DNA of 64,000 nucleotides from Escherichia coli. Lineage in GTDB: Bacteria; Pseudomonadota; Gammaproteobacteria; Enterobacterales; Enterobacteriaceae. The stretch is taken from the NCBI RefSeq assembly GCF_003334815.1, contig NZ_QOWO01000025.1. One strand, 5' to 3'. Below, piece by piece: positions 2,153 through 10,612 of the stretch; position 1 is the first letter of the stretch, and every line of letters begins with the position of its first letter. The notes under the pieces are model-generated. The model saw only the letters and a list, made by a program, of their open reading frames with translations. It did no database searches and was not told where the DNA came from. A program made the translations under genes and the position numbers.

Positions 2153-4829
2153 CGAACCCTTACGTCCCGACCCCGATCGTCTGCTGGAACAAACTGCCGC
2201 GCCGCATCGGGGGAAGCTGAAAGTTTTCTTCGGTGCCTGTGCAGGCGTCGGGAAGACCTGGGCGATGCTGGCAGAAGCCCAGCGACTGCGGGCGCAAGGG
2301 CTGGATATTGTGGTTGGCGTGGTAGAAACCCACGGGCGAAAAGATACCGCCGCCATGCTGGAAGGGCTGGCTGTTCTGCCGTTAAAACGCCAGGCGTACC
2401 GTGGGCGGCATATCAGCGAGTTTGATCTCGATGCCGCCCTCGCCCGCCGCCCGGCGCTGATCTTAATGGACGAACTGGCGCACAGTAATGCGCCAGGTTC
2501 CCGTCATCCCAAACGCTGGCAGGATATCGAAGAACTGCTGGAAGCTGGCATTGATGTTTTCACTACCGTCAACGTTCAGCATCTGGAAAGTCTGAATGAT
2601 GTGGTCAGCGGCGTCACCGGAATTCAGGTACGGGAAACCGTGCCCGATCCTTTTTTCGATGCCGCCGACGACGTGGTGCTGGTGGACTTGCCCCCGGACG
2701 ATCTGCGCCAGCGGCTGAAAGAAGGCAAAGTCTATATTGCCGGGCAGGCGGAGCGCGCCATTGAACATTTTTTCCGCAAAGGTAATCTGATCGCCCTGCG
2801 CGAACTGGCACTGCGCCGTACTGCCGATCGCGTTGATGAGCAAATGCGCGCCTGGCGGGGGCATCCTGGCGAAGAGAAAGTGTGGCACACGCGCGACGCG
2901 ATCCTTTTATGCATCGGCCATAACACCGGCAGCGAAAAACTGGTCCGCGCAGCGGCGCGGCTGGCGTCACGGCTGGGTAGCGTCTGGCACGCGGTGTATG
3001 TTGAAACCCCTGCCCTGCACCGCTTACCGGAAAAAAAACGTCGGGCAATTCTCAGCGCCTTACGTCTGGCGCAGGAACTGGGCGCGGAGACGGCAACACT
3101 TTCTGATCCAGCGGAAGAGAAAGCGGTAGTGCGTTATGCCCGTGAACATAATCTCGGCAAGATTATTCTCGGTCGCCCGGCCTCGCGCCGCTGGTGGCGT
3201 CGGGAAACGTTTGCTGACCGACTGGCGCGCATCGCCCCCGATCTCGATCAGGTGCTGGTCGCGCTTGATGAACCACCCGCCCGCACGATTAACAACGCGC
3301 CGGATAACCGCTCTTTTAAAGACAAGTGGCGTGTACAAATTCAGGGATGCGTGGTTGCCGCCGCGTTATGCGCCGTTATCACCTTAATTGCCATGCAGTG
3401 GCTGATGGCGTTTGATGCCGCCAACCTGGTGATGCTGTATCTGCTTGGCGTGGTGGTGGTGGCGCTATTTTATGGACGCTGGCCTTCAGTGGTTGCCACC
3501 GTCATTAATGTAGTGAGTTTCGATCTCTTTTTTATCGCCCCACGCGGCACGCTCGCCGTCTCTGATGTGCAATATCTGCTGACCTTCGCGGTGATGTTAA
3601 CCGTCGGGCTGGTGATCGGGAACCTTACTGCTGGCGTGCGTTATCAGGCGCGGGTAGCCCGTTACCGCGAGCAACGCACACGGCACTTATATGAAATGTC
3701 GAAAGCTCTGGCGGTGGGCCGCAGTCCGCAGGATATCGCTGCCACCAGCGAACAATTTATTGCCTCCACGTTTCATGCCCGCAGTCAGGTGTTGTTGCCC
3801 GATGACAACGGTAAATTGCAGCCGTTAACACATCCGCAAGGAATGACGCCGTGGGACGATGCCATCGCGCAGTGGAGTTTTGATAAAGGCCTGCCTGCGG
3901 GCGCGGGCACCGACACGTTACCCGGTGTACCGTACCAGATTTTGCCGCTAAAAAGCGGCGAGAAAACCTACGGGCTGGTGGTGGTGGAGCCGGGGAATCT
4001 GCGCCAGTTGATGATCCCGGAACAGCAGCGCCTGCTGGAGACGTTTACGCTGTTAGTCGCCAATGCCCTTGAGCGGCTGACGCTAACCGCCAGCGAAGAA
4101 CAGGCGCGGATGGCAAGCGAACGTGAACAGATCCGCAACGCCCTGCTGGCGGCGCTTTCGCATGATTTACGCACGCCGCTTACGGTGCTGTTTGGTCAGG
4201 CAGAAATCTTAACGCTCGATCTGGCAAGCGAAGGATCACCCCACGCCCGCCAGGCCAGCGAGATCCGTCAGCATGTGCTGAACACTACCCGACTGGTGAA
4301 TAATCTACTGGATATGGCGCGAATTCAGTCCGGCGGCTTTAATTTGAAGAAAGAGTGGTTAACGCTGGAAGAAGTAGTCGGCAGCGCGCTGCAAATGCTG
4401 GAACCGGGTTTATCGTCGCCCATCAATCTTTCTCTGCCAGAACCGCTGACCTTAATCCACGTTGACGGGCCACTCTTTGAACGGGTGCTGATTAATCTGC
4501 TGGAGAACGCGGTGAAATATGCGGGTGCGCAGGCCGAAATTGGTATCGATGCCCACGTTGAGGGCGAAAATCTACAACTGGATGTCTGGGATAACGGCCC
4601 CGGTCTTCCGCCAGGCCAGGAGCAGACGATATTTGATAAGTTTGCTCGCGGGAATAAAGAGTCGGCAGTACCGGGGGTAGGGCTTGGACTGGCAATTTGT
4701 CGGGCGATAGTGGATGTACACGGGGGCACTATTACCGCGTTCAACCGACCGGAAGGTGGTGCCTGTTTTCGTGTTACACTTCCCCAGCAAACTGCCCCTG
4801 AACTTGAAGAATTTCATGAGGATATGTGA
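2145..4829 (+). CDS. kdpD: Sensor histidine kinase KdpD (894 aa)
   Basis: ORF 2103..4829 trimmed to [16 protein letters not shown] start; N-terminal KdpD domain with Walker A (GACAGVGKT), USP-like region, 4 TM helices, HisKA (SHDLRTPL) and HATPase (GLGLAICR) motifs. Confidence 0.93.
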
Positions 4830-5503
4830 CAAACGTTCTGATTGTTGAAGATGAACAGGCTATTCGTCGCTTTCTGCGCACGGCGCTGGAGGGCGACGGG
4901 ATGCGCGTCTTTGAGGCCGAAACGCTGCAACGCGGCTTGCTGGAAGCGGCAACCCGTAAGCCAGATTTGATTATTCTCGATCTCGGCCTGCCCGATGGTG
5001 ATGGGATTGAGTTTATCCGCGACCTGCGCCAGTGGAGCGCGGTGCCGGTGATTGTGCTTTCCGCACGCAGCGAAGAGAGCGACAAAATCGCCGCGCTGGA
5101 TGCCGGAGCGGATGATTATCTGAGTAAGCCGTTTGGCATTGGCGAATTGCAGGCCCGTCTGCGCGTCGCATTACGCCGCCACTCTGCCACCACCGCGCCC
5201 GATCCGCTGGTAAAATTTTCCGATGTTACCGTCGATTTAGCCGCCCGCGTGATTCACCGGGGTGAGGAAGAGGTGCATCTCACACCAATTGAGTTCCGCC
5301 TGCTGGCGGTGCTGCTCAACAATGCCGGAAAAGTACTCACCCAGCGCCAGCTCCTTAACCAGGTGTGGGGGCCAAACGCGGTCGAACACAGTCACTATTT
5401 GCGTATTTATATGGGACATCTGCGACAAAAACTGGAACAGGATCCCGCCCGCCCACGCCATTTCATTACTGAAACCGGTATTGGCTATCGGTTTATGCTT
5501 TGA
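4826..5503 (+). CDS. kdpE: Response regulator KdpE (OmpR family, 225 aa)
   Basis: [20 protein letters not shown]; receiver domain with conserved Asp (IILDLGLPDGDG) plus winged-helix C-terminus; ATGTGA overlap with kdpD stop. Confidence 0.95.
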   Translation: MTNVLIVEDEQAIRRFLRTALEGDGMRVFEAETLQRGLLEAATRKPDLIILDLGLPDGDGIEFIRDLRQWSAVPVIVLSARSEESDKIAALDAGADDYLSKPFGIGELQARLRVALRRHSATTAPDPLVKFSDVTVDLAARVIHRGEEEVHLTPIEFRLLAVLLNNAGKVLTQRQLLNQVWGPNAVEHSHYLRIYMGHLRQKLEQDPARPRHFITETGIGYRFML

Positions 5504-5736
5504 ATATTAATTTTAATACAGCCTGCCTTTTATTAATTAAAGCCGTAATAATAAATACGGCTTTTTATCTTAAACAACACACAAAAATAACAATTCAATA
5601 TTTTATATTACTGAGTAAAAAGCTCATCATTAAATAAATTAAGATTGATCATTTTTTATTGATCACCTTCACAGTTCAACCGTATTTCCTGGATAGAATA
5701 TCTTCACCTTCATTCACATCAGGAAAGGTAAATTAA

Positions 5737-5841
5737 ATGGAAAATAACAGCCGCACTATGCCCCATATAAGGCGGACAACTCATATTATGAAGTTTGCTC
5801 ATCGCAATAGCTTCGACTTTCACTTCTTCAATGCCCGTTAG
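5737..5841 (+). CDS. speFL: Ornithine-sensing ribosome-arrest leader peptide SpeFL (34 aa)
   Basis: Small ORF MENNSRTMPHIRRTTHIMKFAHRNSFDFHFFNAR in the AT-rich leader about 260 bp upstream of speF; matches the leader peptide as I recall it; not in the supplied ORF track (below length cutoff). Confidence 0.8.
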   Translation: MENNSRTMPHIRRTTHIMKFAHRNSFDFHFFNAR

Positions 5842-6098
5842 TCTACCGACTAAGGGCACTTCAGCGTACAGGTCTTCCTGACTCTCTGTATTACAGGCAT
5901 ATGCCTGTATTCCGCAGTGCTCATTCTCTGTTAACCCTTGTATTATCAGCCACCTGACTGGTAAGGGTTTCTGCATTCTGAAAAAAGCAATCTACCTGAT
6001 TTATTTATCAGCGGGGTAACTTTGCTTTTTTCCGGCACGATCGATTTCTCATTCGAGAAATTGAGGACCTGCTATTACCTAAAATAAAGAGATGAAAA

Positions 6099-8297
6099 AT
6101 GTCAAAATTAAAAATTGCGGTTAGTGATTCTTGCCCGTACTGTTTTACCACGCAGCGAGAATGTATCTACATTAATGAAAGTCGTAATATCGATGTGGCG
6201 GCAATAGTTTTATCGCTCAACGATGTTACATGCGGAAAACTCGATGAAATCGATGCCACGGGTTATGGCATCCCGGTATTTATTGCTACTGAAAATCAAG
6301 AACGTGTACCCGCAGAGTATTTGCCCCGTATTTCGGGTGTCTTTGAGAATTGCGAATCGCGACGAGAATTTTATGGTCGCCAGTTAGAAACCGCTGCCAG
6401 CCATTATGAAACTCAACTGCGCCCACCTTTCTTCCGCGCACTGGTCGATTATGTCAATCAAGGTAACAGCGCGTTTGATTGCCCTGGTCATCAGGGCGGC
6501 GAATTTTTCCGTCGCCATCCGGCGGGGAATCAGTTTGTGGAATACTTTGGTGAGGCGCTGTTCCGTGCCGACTTGTGCAACGCCGACGTAGCGATGGGCG
6601 ATCTGCTGATTCACGAAGGCGCGCCATGCATTGCACAGCAACATGCGGCAAAAGTGTTTAATGCCGATAAAACCTACTTCGTTTTAAATGGCACTTCATC
6701 TTCTAACAAAGTGGTTTTAAACGCCCTGCTAACACCGGGTGATCTGGTGCTGTTTGATCGCAATAACCACAAATCTAACCACCACGGAGCGTTGCTACAG
6801 GCTGGTGCAACACCGGTTTATCTGGAAACGGCACGTAACCCGTATGGCTTTATCGGTGGCATTGATGCGCACTGTTTTGAAGAAAGTTACCTGCGTGAGC
6901 TGATCGCGGAAGTCGCACCGCAGCGGGCAAAAGAGGCTCGTCCTTTCCGCCTCGCTGTGATTCAGTTAGGCACCTACGACGGTACGATTTATAACGCCCG
7001 CCAAGTGGTGGATAAAATTGGTCATCTGTGTGACTACATCCTGTTTGACTCAGCATGGGTCGGCTATGAACAGTTTATTCCGATGATGGCGGACTGTTCG
7101 CCGCTGTTGCTGGATCTTAATGAGAACGATCCGGGTATTCTGGTTACGCAATCTGTGCATAAACAACAGGCTGGTTTTTCTCAGACTTCACAAATTCATA
7201 AAAAAGACAGCCACATCAAAGGGCAACAGCGTTATGTACCGCACAAACGCATGAACAACGCCTTTATGATGCACGCCTCCACCAGCCCGTTCTATCCGCT
7301 GTTTGCCGCACTGGATATCAACGCCAAAATGCATGAAGGTGTCAGCGGTCGTAATATGTGGATGGATTGTGTGGTAAATGGCATTAATGCCCGCAAACTG
7401 ATCCTCGATAACTGTCAGCATATTCGTCCGTTCGTACCTGAACTGGTGGATGGTAAACCCTGGCAGTCGTATGAAACAGCGCAAATTGCGGTTGATCTGC
7501 GCTTCTTCCAGTTTGTACCAGGGGAACACTGGCATTCTTTTGAAGGCTATGCAGAGAATCAATACTTTGTCGATCCATGCAAACTGTTGCTGACAACCCC
7601 AGGTATTGATGCACGTAACGGCGAATATGAAGCGTTCGGTGTACCCGCGACGATTCTTGCTAACTTCCTGCGCGAAAATGGCGTAGTGCCGGAAAAATGC
7701 GATCTTAACTCCATCCTCTTCCTGCTGACTCCGGCAGAAGATATGGCCAAACTTCAGCAACTTGTTGCCCTGCTGGTACGCTTCGAAAAACTGCTTGAGT
7801 CCGACGCGCCATTAGCAGAAGTGCTACCTTCCATCTACAAACAGCATGAAGAGCGCTACGCCGGTTATACCCTGCGTCAGTTGTGTCAGGAAATGCATGA
7901 TTTGTATGCCCGCCACAACGTGAAACAACTGCAAAAAGAGATGTTCCGTAAGGAGCACTTCCCACGCGTCAGCATGAATCCGCAAGAAGCCAACTACGCC
8001 TATTTACGCGGTGAAGTGGAACTGGTTCGTCTGCCGGATGCAGAAGGCCGTATCGCTGCCGAAGGTGCGCTTCCTTATCCTCCGGGTGTGCTGTGTGTTG
8101 TTCCGGGTGAAATCTGGGGTGGTGCTGTTCTGCGTTACTTCAGCGCTCTGGAAGAAGGGATCAACCTGCTGCCAGGTTTTGCACCGGAGCTGCAGGGTGT
8201 CTATATCGAAGAACATGATGGTCGTAAGCAAGTTTGGTGCTATGTCATCAAGCCTCGTGATGCGCAAAGCACCCTGTTGAAAGGGGAAAAATTATGA
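6099..8297 (+). CDS. speF: Inducible ornithine decarboxylase (732 aa)
   Basis: ORF MSKLKIAVSDSCPYCF...; fold-type I PLP decarboxylase (SVHKQQAGFSQTS lysine motif); followed by potE antiporter. Confidence 0.94.
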   Translation: MSKLKIAVSDSCPYCFTTQRECIYINESRNIDVAAIVLSLNDVTCGKLDEIDATGYGIPVFIATENQERVPAEYLPRISGVFENCESRREFYGRQLETAASHYETQLRPPFFRALVDYVNQGNSAFDCPGHQGGEFFRRHPAGNQFVEYFGEALFRADLCNADVAMGDLLIHEGAPCIAQQHAAKVFNADKTYFVLNGTSSSNKVVLNALLTPGDLVLFDRNNHKSNHHGALLQAGATPVYLETARNPYGFIGGIDAHCFEESYLRELIAEVAPQRAKEARPFRLAVIQLGTYDGTIYNARQVVDKIGHLCDYILFDSAWVGYEQFIPMMADCSPLLLDLNENDPGILVTQSVHKQQAGFSQTSQIHKKDSHIKGQQRYVPHKRMNNAFMMHASTSPFYPLFAALDINAKMHEGVSGRNMWMDCVVNGINARKLILDNCQHIRPFVPELVDGKPWQSYETAQIAVDLRFFQFVPGEHWHSFEGYAENQYFVDPCKLLLTTPGIDARNGEYEAFGVPATILANFLRENGVVPEKCDLNSILFLLTPAEDMAKLQQLVALLVRFEKLLESDAPLAEVLPSIYKQHEERYAGYTLRQLCQEMHDLYARHNVKQLQKEMFRKEHFPRVSMNPQEANYAYLRGEVELVRLPDAEGRIAAEGALPYPPGVLCVVPGEIWGGAVLRYFSALEEGINLLPGFAPELQGVYIEEHDGRKQVWCYVIKPRDAQSTLLKGEKL

Positions 8298-9613
8298 GTC
8301 AGGCTAAATCGAACAAAATGGGCGTCGTTCAGTTAACCATACTGACGATGGTCAACATGATGGGCTCCGGTATCATCATGCTGCCGACAAAGCTTGCCGA
8401 AGTCGGGACAATCTCAATTATCTCCTGGCTGGTGACAGCCGTAGGCTCAATGGCACTGGCATGGGCATTCGCAAAATGCGGTATGTTCAGCCGTAAATCA
8501 GGCGGTATGGGCGGTTATGCCGAGTATGCTTTCGGTAAATCCGGTAACTTTATGGCGAACTATACCTACGGCGTCTCACTGCTGATTGCTAACGTCGCGA
8601 TTGCTATTTCGGCGGTTGGTTACGGCACCGAACTGCTCGGCGCGAGTTTGTCGCCAGTGCAGATTGGTCTTGCGACCATCGGGGTGCTGTGGATTTGTAC
8701 CGTGGCTAACTTTGGTGGTGCGCGCATTACCGGGCAAATCAGTAGCATTACCGTGTGGGGGGTCATTATTCCGGTCGTCGGTCTGTGCATTATTGGCTGG
8801 TTCTGGTTTAGCCCGACGCTGTACGTTGATTCCTGGAATCCGCATCATGCACCGTTCTTCAGTGCGGTAGGTTCTTCCATCGCTATGACGCTGTGGGCTT
8901 TTCTTGGTCTGGAGTCTGCGTGTGCGAATACTGATGTAGTGGAAAACCCGGAACGTAATGTGCCAATCGCGGTACTCGGCGGTACGTTAGGTGCGGCGGT
9001 GATTTATATCGTCTCCACCAACGTGATTGCCGGGATTGTGCCAAATATGGAGCTGGCAAATTCAACGGCACCATTTGGTCTGGCCTTCGCGCAGATGTTC
9101 ACGCCGGAAGTGGGTAAAGTCATTATGGCGCTGATGGTGATGTCCTGCTGCGGTTCGCTACTTGGCTGGCAGTTCACCATTGCCCAGGTGTTTAAATCTT
9201 CATCTGATGAAGGCTACTTCCCTAAAATTTTCTCCCGTGTAACCAAAGTGGATGCACCGGTGCAGGGAATGTTGACCATTGTGATTATTCAGAGTGGATT
9301 GGCACTGATGACCATTAGCCCGTCGCTAAACAGTCAGTTCAACGTGCTGGTTAACCTGGCCGTGGTGACCAATATCATTCCGTATATTCTGTCAATGGCG
9401 GCATTAGTCATTATTCAGAAGGTCGCTAATGTGCCCCCCTCAAAAGCGAAAGTTGCAAACTTTGTTGCTTTTGTTGGCGCGATGTATAGCTTTTATGCGC
9501 TGTACTCATCCGGGGAAGAAGCCATGCTGTACGGTTCCATCGTGACCTTCCTTGGTTGGACACTGTATGGTCTGGTATCACCACGCTTTGAACTGAAAAA
9601 TAAACACGGTTAA
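8294..9613 (+). CDS. potE: Putrescine-ornithine antiporter (439 aa)
   Basis: 12-TM APC-family ORF MSQAKSNKMGVVQLTILTMVN; start overlaps speF stop (ATGA). Confidence 0.94.
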   Translation: MSQAKSNKMGVVQLTILTMVNMMGSGIIMLPTKLAEVGTISIISWLVTAVGSMALAWAFAKCGMFSRKSGGMGGYAEYAFGKSGNFMANYTYGVSLLIANVAIAISAVGYGTELLGASLSPVQIGLATIGVLWICTVANFGGARITGQISSITVWGVIIPVVGLCIIGWFWFSPTLYVDSWNPHHAPFFSAVGSSIAMTLWAFLGLESACANTDVVENPERNVPIAVLGGTLGAAVIYIVSTNVIAGIVPNMELANSTAPFGLAFAQMFTPEVGKVIMALMVMSCCGSLLGWQFTIAQVFKSSSDEGYFPKIFSRVTKVDAPVQGMLTIVIIQSGLALMTISPSLNSQFNVLVNLAVVTNIIPYILSMAALVIIQKVANVPPSKAKVANFVAFVGAMYSFYALYSSGEEAMLYGSIVTFLGWTLYGLVSPRFELKNKHG

Positions 9614-9655: not shown

Positions 9656-9704
9656 GTTTGTTGGCAAATAGTTCGTTATTTATGCCGCATCCGGCAGATG
9701 TAGG

Positions 9705-9838
9705 GTCTAAACGCGATCGAACACAGCAACTATTTGCGTAATTATATGGGGCATCTGCGACAAAAACTGGAACAGGATCCGGCCCGGCCTCGCCATTTTA
9801 TTACTGAAACCGGTATTGGGTATCGGTTTATGCTTTGA
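9705..9838 (+). pseudogene. Duplicated 3'-terminal fragment of kdpE (about 130 bp, roughly 90% identical to 5374..5503)
   Basis: Direct nucleotide comparison: aaacgcgatcgaacacagcaactatttgcg... vs kdpE aaacgcggtcgaacacagtcactatttgcg...; same stop codon; translates to ...NAIEHSNYLRNYMGHLRQKLEQDPARPRHFITETGIGYRFML* with no proper start. Confidence 0.8.
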
Positions 9839-9961
9839 AAAAAGTGGCAATGTATGGATAAAGTCATTTTTTATTCAAATATAAGGAACTTAATATTTAA
9901 AAAATGTTCCATACAATTCCTCATCATAAATGACACCGTAGCACACAAGGAGCAAGTAGCG

Positions 9962-10612
9962 ATGCGTGAAATGAATCAGTTAGTAAATACTGAAGATTCA
10001 GCCTGGCCAATAATCCAGAACTGGTTAAAAGACGCCACAAACCATACCGAACTCTTACCGGTTAATAAAGATTTAGCCGAAACCGCACTTTATCAATTAC
10101 AGGTGACAACAAAATCACCGATGGGTGCGCTTGTCTATGGCTCCGGAGGTCTGCTGATTGATAATGGTTGGTTACGCATAGCAGGATCTGGTCACCCCCG
10201 GTTGCCACGAGATCCAGTAAGTTGGACACAACGCCCTGAATTCGCAGGCGTGCGGGCTTTACCCATCGCTGACGATGTCGCAGGGGGAATTTTTGCTCTT
10301 AATGGTGGCGATCTTGGGGAAGATACTGGCTGCGTTTATTATTTTGCGCCAGATACGCTGAATTGGGAAAGTCTGGAAGTTGGATATTCTGAGTTTCTTC
10401 AGTGGGCATTATCCGGTGATTTAGATACCTTCTATGAAAATGTACGATGGCAGCAATGGCGAGAAGACGTAATAAAATTATCGGCAACGGAAGCCTTCAC
10501 GTTCTACCCTTTCTTATGGGTACAAAGTGAAGAAGCAAGAACAAGAAAAGTTATTTCGCTTACTGAACTCTGGGAAATGCAGTATCAAATGAAAGAAACA
10601 TTCACGCAATAA
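9962..10612 (+). CDS. ybfG: Conserved hypothetical protein (YbfG-like)
   Basis: ORF 9854..10612; most likely start at ATG 9962 (MREMNQLVNTE) preceded by AAGGAG RBS; position between potE and ybfP matches K-12 ybfG; symbol from synteny only. Confidence 0.55.
   Translation: MREMNQLVNTEDSAWPIIQNWLKDATNHTELLPVNKDLAETALYQLQVTTKSPMGALVYGSGGLLIDNGWLRIAGSGHPRLPRDPVSWTQRPEFAGVRALPIADDVAGGIFALNGGDLGEDTGCVYYFAPDTLNWESLEVGYSEFLQWALSGDLDTFYENVRWQQWREDVIKLSATEAFTFYPFLWVQSEEARTRKVISLTELWEMQYQMKETFTQ

Follow-up and report, generated by a model that had tools for sequence, protein, structure and literature searches.

A published ornithine-sensing arrest peptide in the kdpE–speF spacer of Escherichia coli, and an opposing reading frame, the former ybfK, that is probably not a gene

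Which of the two open reading frames (ORFs) in the spacer between kdpE and speF of Escherichia coli is a gene, given that both read identical triplets in opposite directions, codon on codon? The window analysed here (the whole stretch of 64,000 nucleotides from one E. coli contig) displays the K-12-type gene order, with kdpD and kdpE (4826..5503) followed by the spacer (5504..6098), speF (6099..8297) and potE (8294..9613). The spacer spans 595 bp with a GC content of 0.358, in agreement with an original prediction made from the sequence, which had described it as AT-rich and about 600 bp long; it is 100% identical to its counterpart in K-12 MG1655, and window positions (w) convert to the opposite strand of K-12 as 726559 - w. 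That prediction had also placed a 34-codon ORF at 5737..5841 and an 85-amino-acid ORF, fully covering it, on the opposite strand at 5719..5976. Both are present at these coordinates, on the plus and minus strands respectively, and the translation of the 34-codon ORF, re-read in the sequence as MENNSRTMPHIRRTTHIMKFAHRNSFDFHFFNAR, is exactly as quoted. The tail of kdpE is duplicated and brackets the operon; one hit, which had the look of a speF-less junction, proved to be an IS1-mediated deletion. Our results very strongly suggest that the spacer comprises the promoter and the approximately 390-nt leader of the acid-inducible speFL-speF-potE operon, with SpeFL as its attenuation leader peptide and the antisense ORF as a chance frame.

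The identity of the 34-codon ORF is established by several independent resources. Specifically, its product is identical at 34 of 34 residues to the SpeFL chain of PDB entries 6TBV and 6TC3 (E 7.6e-20) and matches the Pfam family PF10940 "Leader peptide SpeFL" (E 4.6e-5), while the NCBIfam search returned no match for the peptide. Databases name it leader peptide SpeFL (formerly DUF2618), the curated K-12 record NC_000913.3 annotates speFL as b4803, and PGAP annotates speFL in most of the 1709 genomes with this spacer. AGG and CGG, the codons at positions 12 and 13 of the ORF, are rare in E. coli. The gap between speFL and speF measures 257 nt (6099 - 5841 - 1), the length published for speFL together with a UAG stop (10.1101/604074). 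The same study assigned ornithine recognition to a HIRRXXH motif at residues 10-16, noted the rare Arg codons 12 and 13, and delineated an effector domain involving Phe20/26/28/30/31 (10.1101/604074). Since each of these published features can be read in the window (Table 1) and all 34 residues are identical, the element is SpeFL itself and not a relative. The assignment to SpeFL in the original prediction is thus borne out by PDB identity, PF10940 and the RefSeq entry b4803; the comparison with the published speFL sequence that it proposed returned an identical sequence with all published features, and nothing we found contradicts it.

A SpeF scan of one genome per species recovered 80 speF-like loci, about 60 of which carry a SpeFL-like ORF 200-490 nt ahead of speF, in taxa ranging from Escherichia to Shewanella and in some Sutterella. 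This recurrence is far beyond chance, and most loci that lack the ORF are decarboxylase paralogues of lower identity or truncated contigs. Selection on each reading frame was then measured across 48 Enterobacterales orthologues of exactly 34 codons, chosen by the presence of IRRxxH. The speFL frame has a pooled pN/pS of 0.151 (pS 0.77), and all registers other than the speFL sense frame range from 0.32 to 1.54. At sense codon positions 1, 2 and 3, the variable columns number 18, 17 and 29, and the summed diversity amounts to 5.5, 4.0 and 13.9, respectively. These patterns point to strong purifying selection on the peptide, and a lack of sense-strand conservation, which the original prediction had named as evidence that would speak against it, is not what the 48 orthologues display. 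Seven residues are invariant among them (His10, Ile11, Arg12, Arg13, His16, Phe26 and Phe28); IRRxxH occurs in 48 of 48 by the selection criterion, while His10 was not part of that criterion. The rare codons are also widely kept, with AGG at codon 12 in 37 of 48 orthologues, CGG or CGA at codon 13 in 38 and ATA at codon 11 in 30, so the arrest motif and the rare Arg codons are conserved, as the prediction had suggested checking.

The antisense ORF, for its part, could be traced to a former gene. An older K-12 map shows ybfK adjoining kdpE on the opposite strand (PMC5493296), and a published table of threonine codons lists for YbfK two in-frame ACA, two out-of-frame ACA, one ACG and no ACC or ACU (PMC7521043), a fingerprint that the codon counts of the 85-amino-acid ORF reproduce exactly. 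Map position and codon fingerprint together identify the ORF as the former ybfK, and the original prediction, which had tentatively mentioned a small protein annotated at this position in some genomes, proves right on this point. A look-up of protein clusters returned only 'hypothetical protein' names for the 85-amino-acid product, without the name YbfK, and a literature search for b4590 returned unrelated papers only. The ybfK feature is absent from the current K-12 record and from PGAP annotations, having been removed by curators.

The removal is well supported by comparative data. Over the speFL overlap, the ybfK register has a pN/pS of 1.275 and contains a stop in 17 of the 48 species; the longest antisense ORF over speFL has a median length of 47.5 amino acids, reaches at least 80 in only 4 of the 48 and measures 70 in E. 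albertii. In the part outside speFL (5842..5976), every one of the 21 aligned relatives carries at least one indel of a length not divisible by three. No Shine-Dalgarno sequence precedes the antisense ATG (upstream sequence TTGCTTTTTTCAGA), whereas speFL has AGGAAAGG; the scan detected no promoter-like site on the minus strand of the spacer, and the 85-amino-acid product matches nothing in Pfam even at E 10 and nothing in NCBIfam. Its length is unremarkable by itself, since 5.3% of spacer shuffles that preserve dinucleotides contain an ORF of at least 85 amino acids and eight other antisense ORFs at least as long occur in the neighbouring 7 kb of real genes. Stops in the ybfK register arise solely from TTA, CTA or TCA codons on the sense strand: when SpeFL is recoded with random synonymous codons, no stop interrupts the register over speFL in 70% of cases, and the speFL of the K-12-type lineage contains none of these codons, which leaves the register open. 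Conservation beneath the N-terminal half of the antisense ORF is accounted for by sense RNA elements and not by coding. From these sequence comparisons, the former ybfK is most plausibly a chance open frame and not a gene. The original prediction had considered any such annotation a mis-call, and indeed the frame is neither conserved nor constrained, and the annotation has already been dropped.

Published expression data fit this picture. Ribosome-profiling support, which the original prediction had named, next to proteomic evidence, as what could favour the antisense frame, amounts to <1 ppm of monomers for YbfK, and the same authors classed YbfK as important for fitness from transposon data (Price et al., 10.1101/038851). 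The latter effect might be taken to favour a gene, but damage to speFL and the attenuator would be expected to produce it equally; the simplest reading is that insertions in ybfK would lower fitness by disrupting both. Adams et al. (PMC7815308, supplementary file 2) mapped a region of Rho termination at K-12 720082 (+), which corresponds to window position 6477 (-), and, for the downstream 800-nt segment that contains ybfK, gave read counts of 18 in the absence and 101 in the presence of bicyclomycin. This increase upon Rho inhibition indicates that the scant antisense transcription is silenced by Rho before the ORF is reached.

Turning to the sense strand, a sigma-70 consensus scan of the spacer identified no promoter on either strand and no consensus -35 element, which fits an activator-dependent promoter. 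The conserved TTTGA-N6-TCACA element (CGTGA-N6-TCACA in Serratia) may represent a CRP/FNR-type activator site. Downstream of it, GGATARAAT is kept 38-43 nt before the AUG across Enterobacteriaceae, and in Salmonella the transcription start has been mapped, with orf34 at +32 (PMC6386406); by homology, transcription in E. coli would start near 5706, with the speFL AUG likewise at +32. The hairpin that holds the speFL stop codon is 87% paired in 28 Enterobacteriaceae species, four of its pairs having changed on both sides, exceeds every shuffled and slid control, and matches a pause hairpin described previously (10.1101/604074, PMC6386406). It is absent in Serratia, Yersinia and Hafnia, where a C-rich unstructured sequence follows the stop. 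The segment 5800-5841 contains 13 C and 6 G, a composition compatible with the predicted rut region but incapable of proving Rho binding.

A consensus fold of the leaders of 22 species added five conserved helices within the 257-nt leader, several of which show compensatory changes (Table 1); the terminator scan also flagged 6010-6026. The TTCTT segment at 5824-5828 pairs with AAGAG at 6087-6091 in 21-22 of the 22 species, with invariant bases that provide no covariation support. An Rfam search of 5300-6400 at a permissive threshold produced only chance snoRNA-like matches (E 0.28-8.7, far under gathering scores) and no curated RNA family over the speF leader; the Rfam 'speF' motif of other bacterial groups has no match to the leader here.

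Table 1. Features of the kdpE–speF spacer (window coordinates) and the basis of each call.
Feature	Position	Strand	Basis
Intrinsic terminator-like hairpin and T-run, predicted to close the kdpFABC-kdpDE transcript before the speF promoter	5539..5564	+	Terminator scan: 9-bp stem, 4 GC pairs, T-rich tail
TTTGA-N6-TCACA (or TTGAT-N4-TTCAC), its centre lying about 41 nt before the predicted transcription start	5658..5673	+	Conserved block, 48 species
Predicted -10 hexamer TAGAAT, speFL-speF-potE promoter	5694..5699	+	Conservation and homology to the Salmonella start
speFL Shine-Dalgarno region AGGAAAGG, 8 nt before the AUG	5721..5728	+	Sequence; AAAGG/GGAA kept in orthologues
speFL, 34 codons and TAG stop, ornithine-sensing ribosome-arrest leader peptide	5737..5841	+	PDB, Pfam, RefSeq, pN/pS
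HIRRTTH, the HIRRXXH ornithine-recognition loop, codons 10-16	5764..5784	+	Motif per 10.1101/604074
Rare codons ATA(11), AGG(12), CGG(13) within the loop	5767-5775 (AGG CGG 5770-5775)	+	Sequence
C-terminal hydrophobic effector domain, codons 20-34, Phe20/26/28/30/31 all found	5794..5838	+	Residues named in 10.1101/604074
Predicted rut region, C-rich and G-poor 3' part of speFL	5800..5841	+	Composition; role from 10.1101/604074, PMC6386406
Predicted anti-Shine-Dalgarno TTCTT	5824-5828	+	Consensus fold, pairs with 6087-6091
Hairpin holding Arg34 and the UAG stop, RNA-polymerase pause hairpin before the Rho termination point	5832..5857	+	Minimum-energy fold, covariation; described in 10.1101/604074, PMC6386406
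Conserved leader hairpin TACAGGC / GCCTGTA	5892..5909	+	Consensus fold, 22 leaders
Conserved leader hairpin, strong covariation	5946..5961	+	At three pairs, both sides differ in 9-10 sequences
Conserved stem AAAAGCAA / TTGCTTTT around hairpin CTGA...TCAG (5996-6011), then T-run	5983..6029	+	Retained in 19-22 of 22 species
Conserved hairpin TCGATTTCT / GAGAAATTGA, closely preceding the speF ribosome-binding site	6041..6064	+	AU to GC compensatory change in 9/22 species
speF Shine-Dalgarno AAGAG; speF ATG at 6099	6087..6091	+	Sequence; TAAAGAG kept in 22/22
85-codon antisense ORF, the former ybfK (K-12 720583..720840), probably not a gene	5719..5976	-	pN/pS, stops, indels, no Shine-Dalgarno, no family

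For ornithine binding, stalling and Rho dependence, our account of the leader draws on the literature. Ornithine-dependent arrest and Rho control of speF were demonstrated for this exact sequence by toeprinting, bicyclomycin treatment, cryo-EM and mutagenesis, with a structure in which the peptide binds ornithine and alanine substitutions that abolish arrest (10.1101/604074); in Salmonella, a 157-nt Rho-terminated transcript was described, and mutants of the start and stop of orf34 were assayed (PMC6386406). In the resulting model, once transcription has begun near 5706, ribosomes would translate the 34 codons of speFL and unwind the pause hairpin, the AGG-CGG pair at codons 12-13 would delay trailing ribosomes and thereby keep the C-rich rut in the 3' part of speFL exposed, and RNA polymerase would pause at the hairpin containing the speFL stop. 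At low ornithine, the lead ribosome would terminate and depart, Rho would load, and transcription would end just past the hairpin; the CU-rich segment could additionally sequester the ribosome-binding site of speF by base pairing. When ornithine is high, nascent SpeFL and the exit tunnel would capture ornithine via the HIRRXXH loop, and the Phe-rich C-terminus would prevent release at the UAG, leaving stalled and queued ribosomes to mask rut, which would prevent Rho loading and allow speF-potE to be transcribed and translated. Ornithine sensing with Rho-dependent attenuation of speF-potE, as the original prediction had it, therefore coincides with the mechanism published for the exact sequence, and the features it requires are conserved here. 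Two further layers were described in Salmonella: the speF ribosome-binding site is sequestered, and arginine and RNase G exert an effect via the Arg codons (PMC6386406). The role of these codons is disputed between arginine sensing with RNase G decay and a ribosome spacing that keeps rut exposed (PMC6386406; 10.1101/604074).

Several other readings of the locus can be envisioned. Both strands might code, ybfK being a young, lineage-restricted de novo gene of K-12-type E. coli and Shigella with very low translation. The 85-amino-acid ORF is intact in the K-12-type genomes examined and, with one amino-acid change, in a leader that is 97.8% identical; its 90%-identity cluster has 469 members, and the exact sequence occurs on at least 1000 contigs. 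An ORF this long appears in only about 5% of shuffles, and insertions in ybfK did affect fitness (10.1101/038851). Yet intactness within a single lineage is explained by nucleotide identities of 98-100%, and the fitness effect by the damage done to speFL and the attenuator. The frame combines a pN/pS of 1.28 with stops or frameshifts in nearly all relatives, shrinking to 45 amino acids in three divergent (type-B) leaders of E. coli and to 70 in E. albertii; it lacks a Shine-Dalgarno sequence before its ATG and a promoter-like site on the minus strand, its ribosome-profiling signal stays at <1 ppm (10.1101/038851), Rho ends antisense transcripts upstream of it (PMC7815308), and curators have removed it. 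We therefore regard coding on both strands as extremely improbable. Much the same holds for a regulatory antisense RNA that would modulate speF expression by pairing with the speFL leader, the ORF being incidental and no protein being made. Antisense transcription of speF is measurable (18 versus 101 reads upon Rho inhibition in the 800-nt segment with the ORF), but these reads are very few and typical of the pervasive antisense transcription that Rho silences, the spacer has no promoter-like element on the minus strand, and conservation is fully explained by the sense peptide and the sense RNA helices; such an RNA is hardly to be expected here. Should the former ybfK nonetheless be translated very weakly as a K-12-type de novo protein, or an antisense transcript tune speFL, an outcome to which we assign next to no probability, the locus would be a rare instance in which one strand encodes a leader peptide and the other, codon on codon, a protein.

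A different doubt concerns the sense strand itself, where speFL might be translated only as a spacer while RNA structures and Arg codons do the regulating, as in classical amino-acid attenuators. The conserved rare Arg codons and the highly structured leader are in keeping with this, as are arginine-dependent effects in Salmonella that operate through the Arg codons and alternative RNA folds (PMC6386406). Against it, amino-acid constraint extends along the entire peptide (pN/pS 0.15; seven invariant residues). To our knowledge, classical attenuator leaders show no such constraint outside their regulatory codons, and the peptide-wide constraint on SpeFL is unlike theirs. The published structure with ornithine-bound peptide and the alanine substitutions that abolish arrest (10.1101/604074) likewise argue for a sequence-specific role of the peptide, and a mere spacer function is very unlikely. 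An ornithine-sensing SpeFL peptide opposite a chance frame thus accounts best for the evidence on both strands.

Within E. coli, the speF leader presents a deep dimorphism. Among 5426 complete genomes, 5045 carry speF and 1709 have the spacer type of the window. Taken alone, the latter number had raised the possibility that speF is an accessory gene, which was rejected given its presence in 5045 genomes; a second, divergent leader allele accounts for the remaining difference. Approximately 3340 genomes carry a 5' portion of speF only 80-95% identical to that of the window (type B), making type B the speF allele of most E. coli genomes. In the three type-B genomes examined, the leader is about 83% identical to that of the window and has an insertion of about 51 nt, and its SpeFL, MENNNRLMPHIRRTTHIMKFAHRNSFDFHFFNAR, shares 31 of 34 residues with the window peptide, the remaining nucleotide differences in speFL being synonymous. 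About 11 of 35 positions are changed in the ybfK register of type B, with a stop arising from the Leu7 TTA codon, and the antisense ORF of these three leaders spans 45 amino acids with a different N-terminus. This dimorphism and the duplication of the kdpE tail exceed the SpeFL/ybfK finding in novelty but lie outside the scope of the present analysis.

The SpeFL leader was already known, having been published in 2019-2020, solved structurally and entered into Pfam, RefSeq and PDB; through it, the ribosome senses ornithine and switches on putrescine synthesis and export under acid stress. There is nothing new in the SpeFL/ybfK finding as such, and both the observation and the interpretation in the original prediction are correct. 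The value of the present analysis lies in annotation: alongside the identity, conservation, codons and RNA helices of the leader, it supports the removal of ybfK quantitatively. The hundreds of 85-amino-acid 'hypothetical protein' entries in databases would accordingly be artefacts, and a published puzzle, namely that insertions in a near-unexpressed 'ybfK' affect fitness, finds a simple explanation if they cut the speFL attenuator.

Compared with known systems, the element does not differ from SpeFL/orf34 (b4803, PF10940, 6TBV, 6TC3) in peptide, position, 257-nt spacing, UAG stop, rare Arg codons or stop hairpin. The Salmonella orthologue has a longer gap, with the speF AUG at +516, and its stop is reported as UGA (PMC6386406). 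The nearest functional analogue is TnaC of tnaCAB: in both, a free amino acid is captured jointly by a short leader peptide and the exit tunnel, release at the stop is blocked, and the stalled ribosome hides rut and prevents Rho termination before the structural genes (10.1101/604074). By contrast, the TnaC peptide sequence is unrelated, its ligand is Trp instead of ornithine, and rare Arg codons play no role. The upstream ORF MdtU of mdtJI is, like SpeFL, polyamine-responsive and coupled to premature Rho termination (PMC7815308), but it has another peptide, spermidine as its ligand and a less well-defined mechanism. As for ybfK, it appears to be the same kind of artefact as yceQ, another annotated 'protein' without ribosome-profiling signal or homologues that lies over the regulatory region of another gene, whose apparent mutant phenotype stems from the rne promoter and leader region and which was dismissed as non-coding (10.1101/038851). 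Whereas yceQ covers a promoter and a structured 5' UTR, ybfK additionally covers a translated leader peptide, codon for codon.

In complete E. coli genomes, the speF leader together with the 5' part of speF exists in two deeply divergent allelic forms. This stretch corresponds to positions 5504-7300 of the window, which carries the K-12-type allele, and is compared here with the divergent type-B allele at loci L087-L089. The K-12-type spacer between kdpE and speF was found in 1,709 of 5,426 complete genomes; speF itself was present in 5,045 of these 5,426, and approximately 3,340 of the genomes with speF have it at only 80-95% identity. Three type-B genomes were examined; their leaders share approximately 83% identity with that of the window, a divergence like that between E. 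coli and Citrobacter, and differ from it by an indel of approximately 51 nt. Next to the divergent leader and speF, potE is 97.7-99.3% identical. This dimorphism suggests either that one form was replaced by recombination long ago or that the regulatory region has balanced alleles. The type-B leaders also contain a PGAP-annotated open reading frame (ORF) that shares the first 22 nt of speFL, the ornithine-sensing leader peptide ORF, in another frame and spans the promoter region; it is probably another spurious call, as was ybfK, the retired antisense ORF overlying speFL.

Features in and around the speF leader (window coordinates unless a locus is named)
Feature	Position	Remarks
Direct repeat, 145 nt	5360-5504 and 9695-9839	90% identity between copies
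TTTGA-N6-TCACA, alternatively TTGAT-N4-TTCAC; conserved	5658-5673	centre ~41 nt 5' of predicted start site
Stem AAAAGCAA/TTGCTTTT, then T-run	5983-6031	~70 nt before speF ATG
ybfG, DUF2625 protein, 252-aa ORF	9854-10612	after kdpE-tail repeat
44-aa 'hypothetical protein' (PGAP), type-B leaders	~3473-3607, loci L087-L089	same strand as speFL

The operon is bracketed by a direct repeat made up of the kdpE 3' end and a duplicate of it directly after potE, where it forms the pseudogene ybfI (b4636), which PGAP names 'incomplete winged-helix protein'. The arrangement, with the kdpE tail on both sides of speFL-speF-potE, is like an insertion scar. ybfI-ybfG-ybfP is missing from L087 and L088, two of the three type-B genomes, and there potE abuts pgm. 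The K-12 annotation lists ybfG as a pseudogene containing an internal stop, but some strains have it annotated as intact.

Within the leader, the conserved element upstream of the predicted transcription start, whose Serratia counterpart reads CGTGA-N6-TCACA, resembles a class II activator site of the CRP/FNR type. A promoter scan detected no -35 hexamer at the speFL-speF-potE promoter, and speF is known to be induced by anaerobiosis and acid; a class II site at this position would agree with both. Closer to speF, the stem followed by a T-run is conserved across 19-22 of 22 species, and its 6010-6026 portion was flagged by the terminator scan. It could represent a second, intrinsic attenuation point or, alternatively, part of the 'ring-like' structure of Ben-Zvi et al.

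The leader is also subject to natural lesions. Two genomes (L003, NZ_AP022177; L085, NZ_AP027759) carry IS1 events, one of each kind: an IS1A insertion within speFL, which leaves a truncated ORF annotated by PGAP as a 'hypothetical protein', and an IS1-associated deletion that took out the leader along with the 5' end of speF. A further strain (L002) combines a T14K substitution in SpeFL with a frameshifted speF.

YbfK is among six proteins present at less than 1 ppm that were still scored as 'important for fitness' in minimal glucose (10.1101/038851). Because the ybfK ORF overlies speFL and the Rho attenuator, this phenotype is most simply read as a cis effect on speF-potE expression. A published Rho termination region (Rho score 3.9) lies antisense within speF at K-12 position 720082 (+), equivalent to window position ~6477 (-), and over the 800 nt that follow, a stretch containing the ybfK ORF, bicyclomycin raised antisense reads from 18 to 101 (PMC7815308).

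The primary paper describes SpeFL as a gammaproteobacterial family (10.1101/604074). SpeFL-like upstream ORFs (uORFs) precede speF outside Enterobacterales as well, both in Shewanella (L060-L066 and L070; peptide MKRKSKIMAHIRRTRHIMMP...) and in Sutterella/Burkholderiaceae metagenome-assembled genomes (MAGs; L057, L062, L069, L071 and L077). The peptides of the betaproteobacterial gut MAGs (...VIRRIRHIMCFxCRSCF...) are missing His10 and have a longer C-terminal tail.
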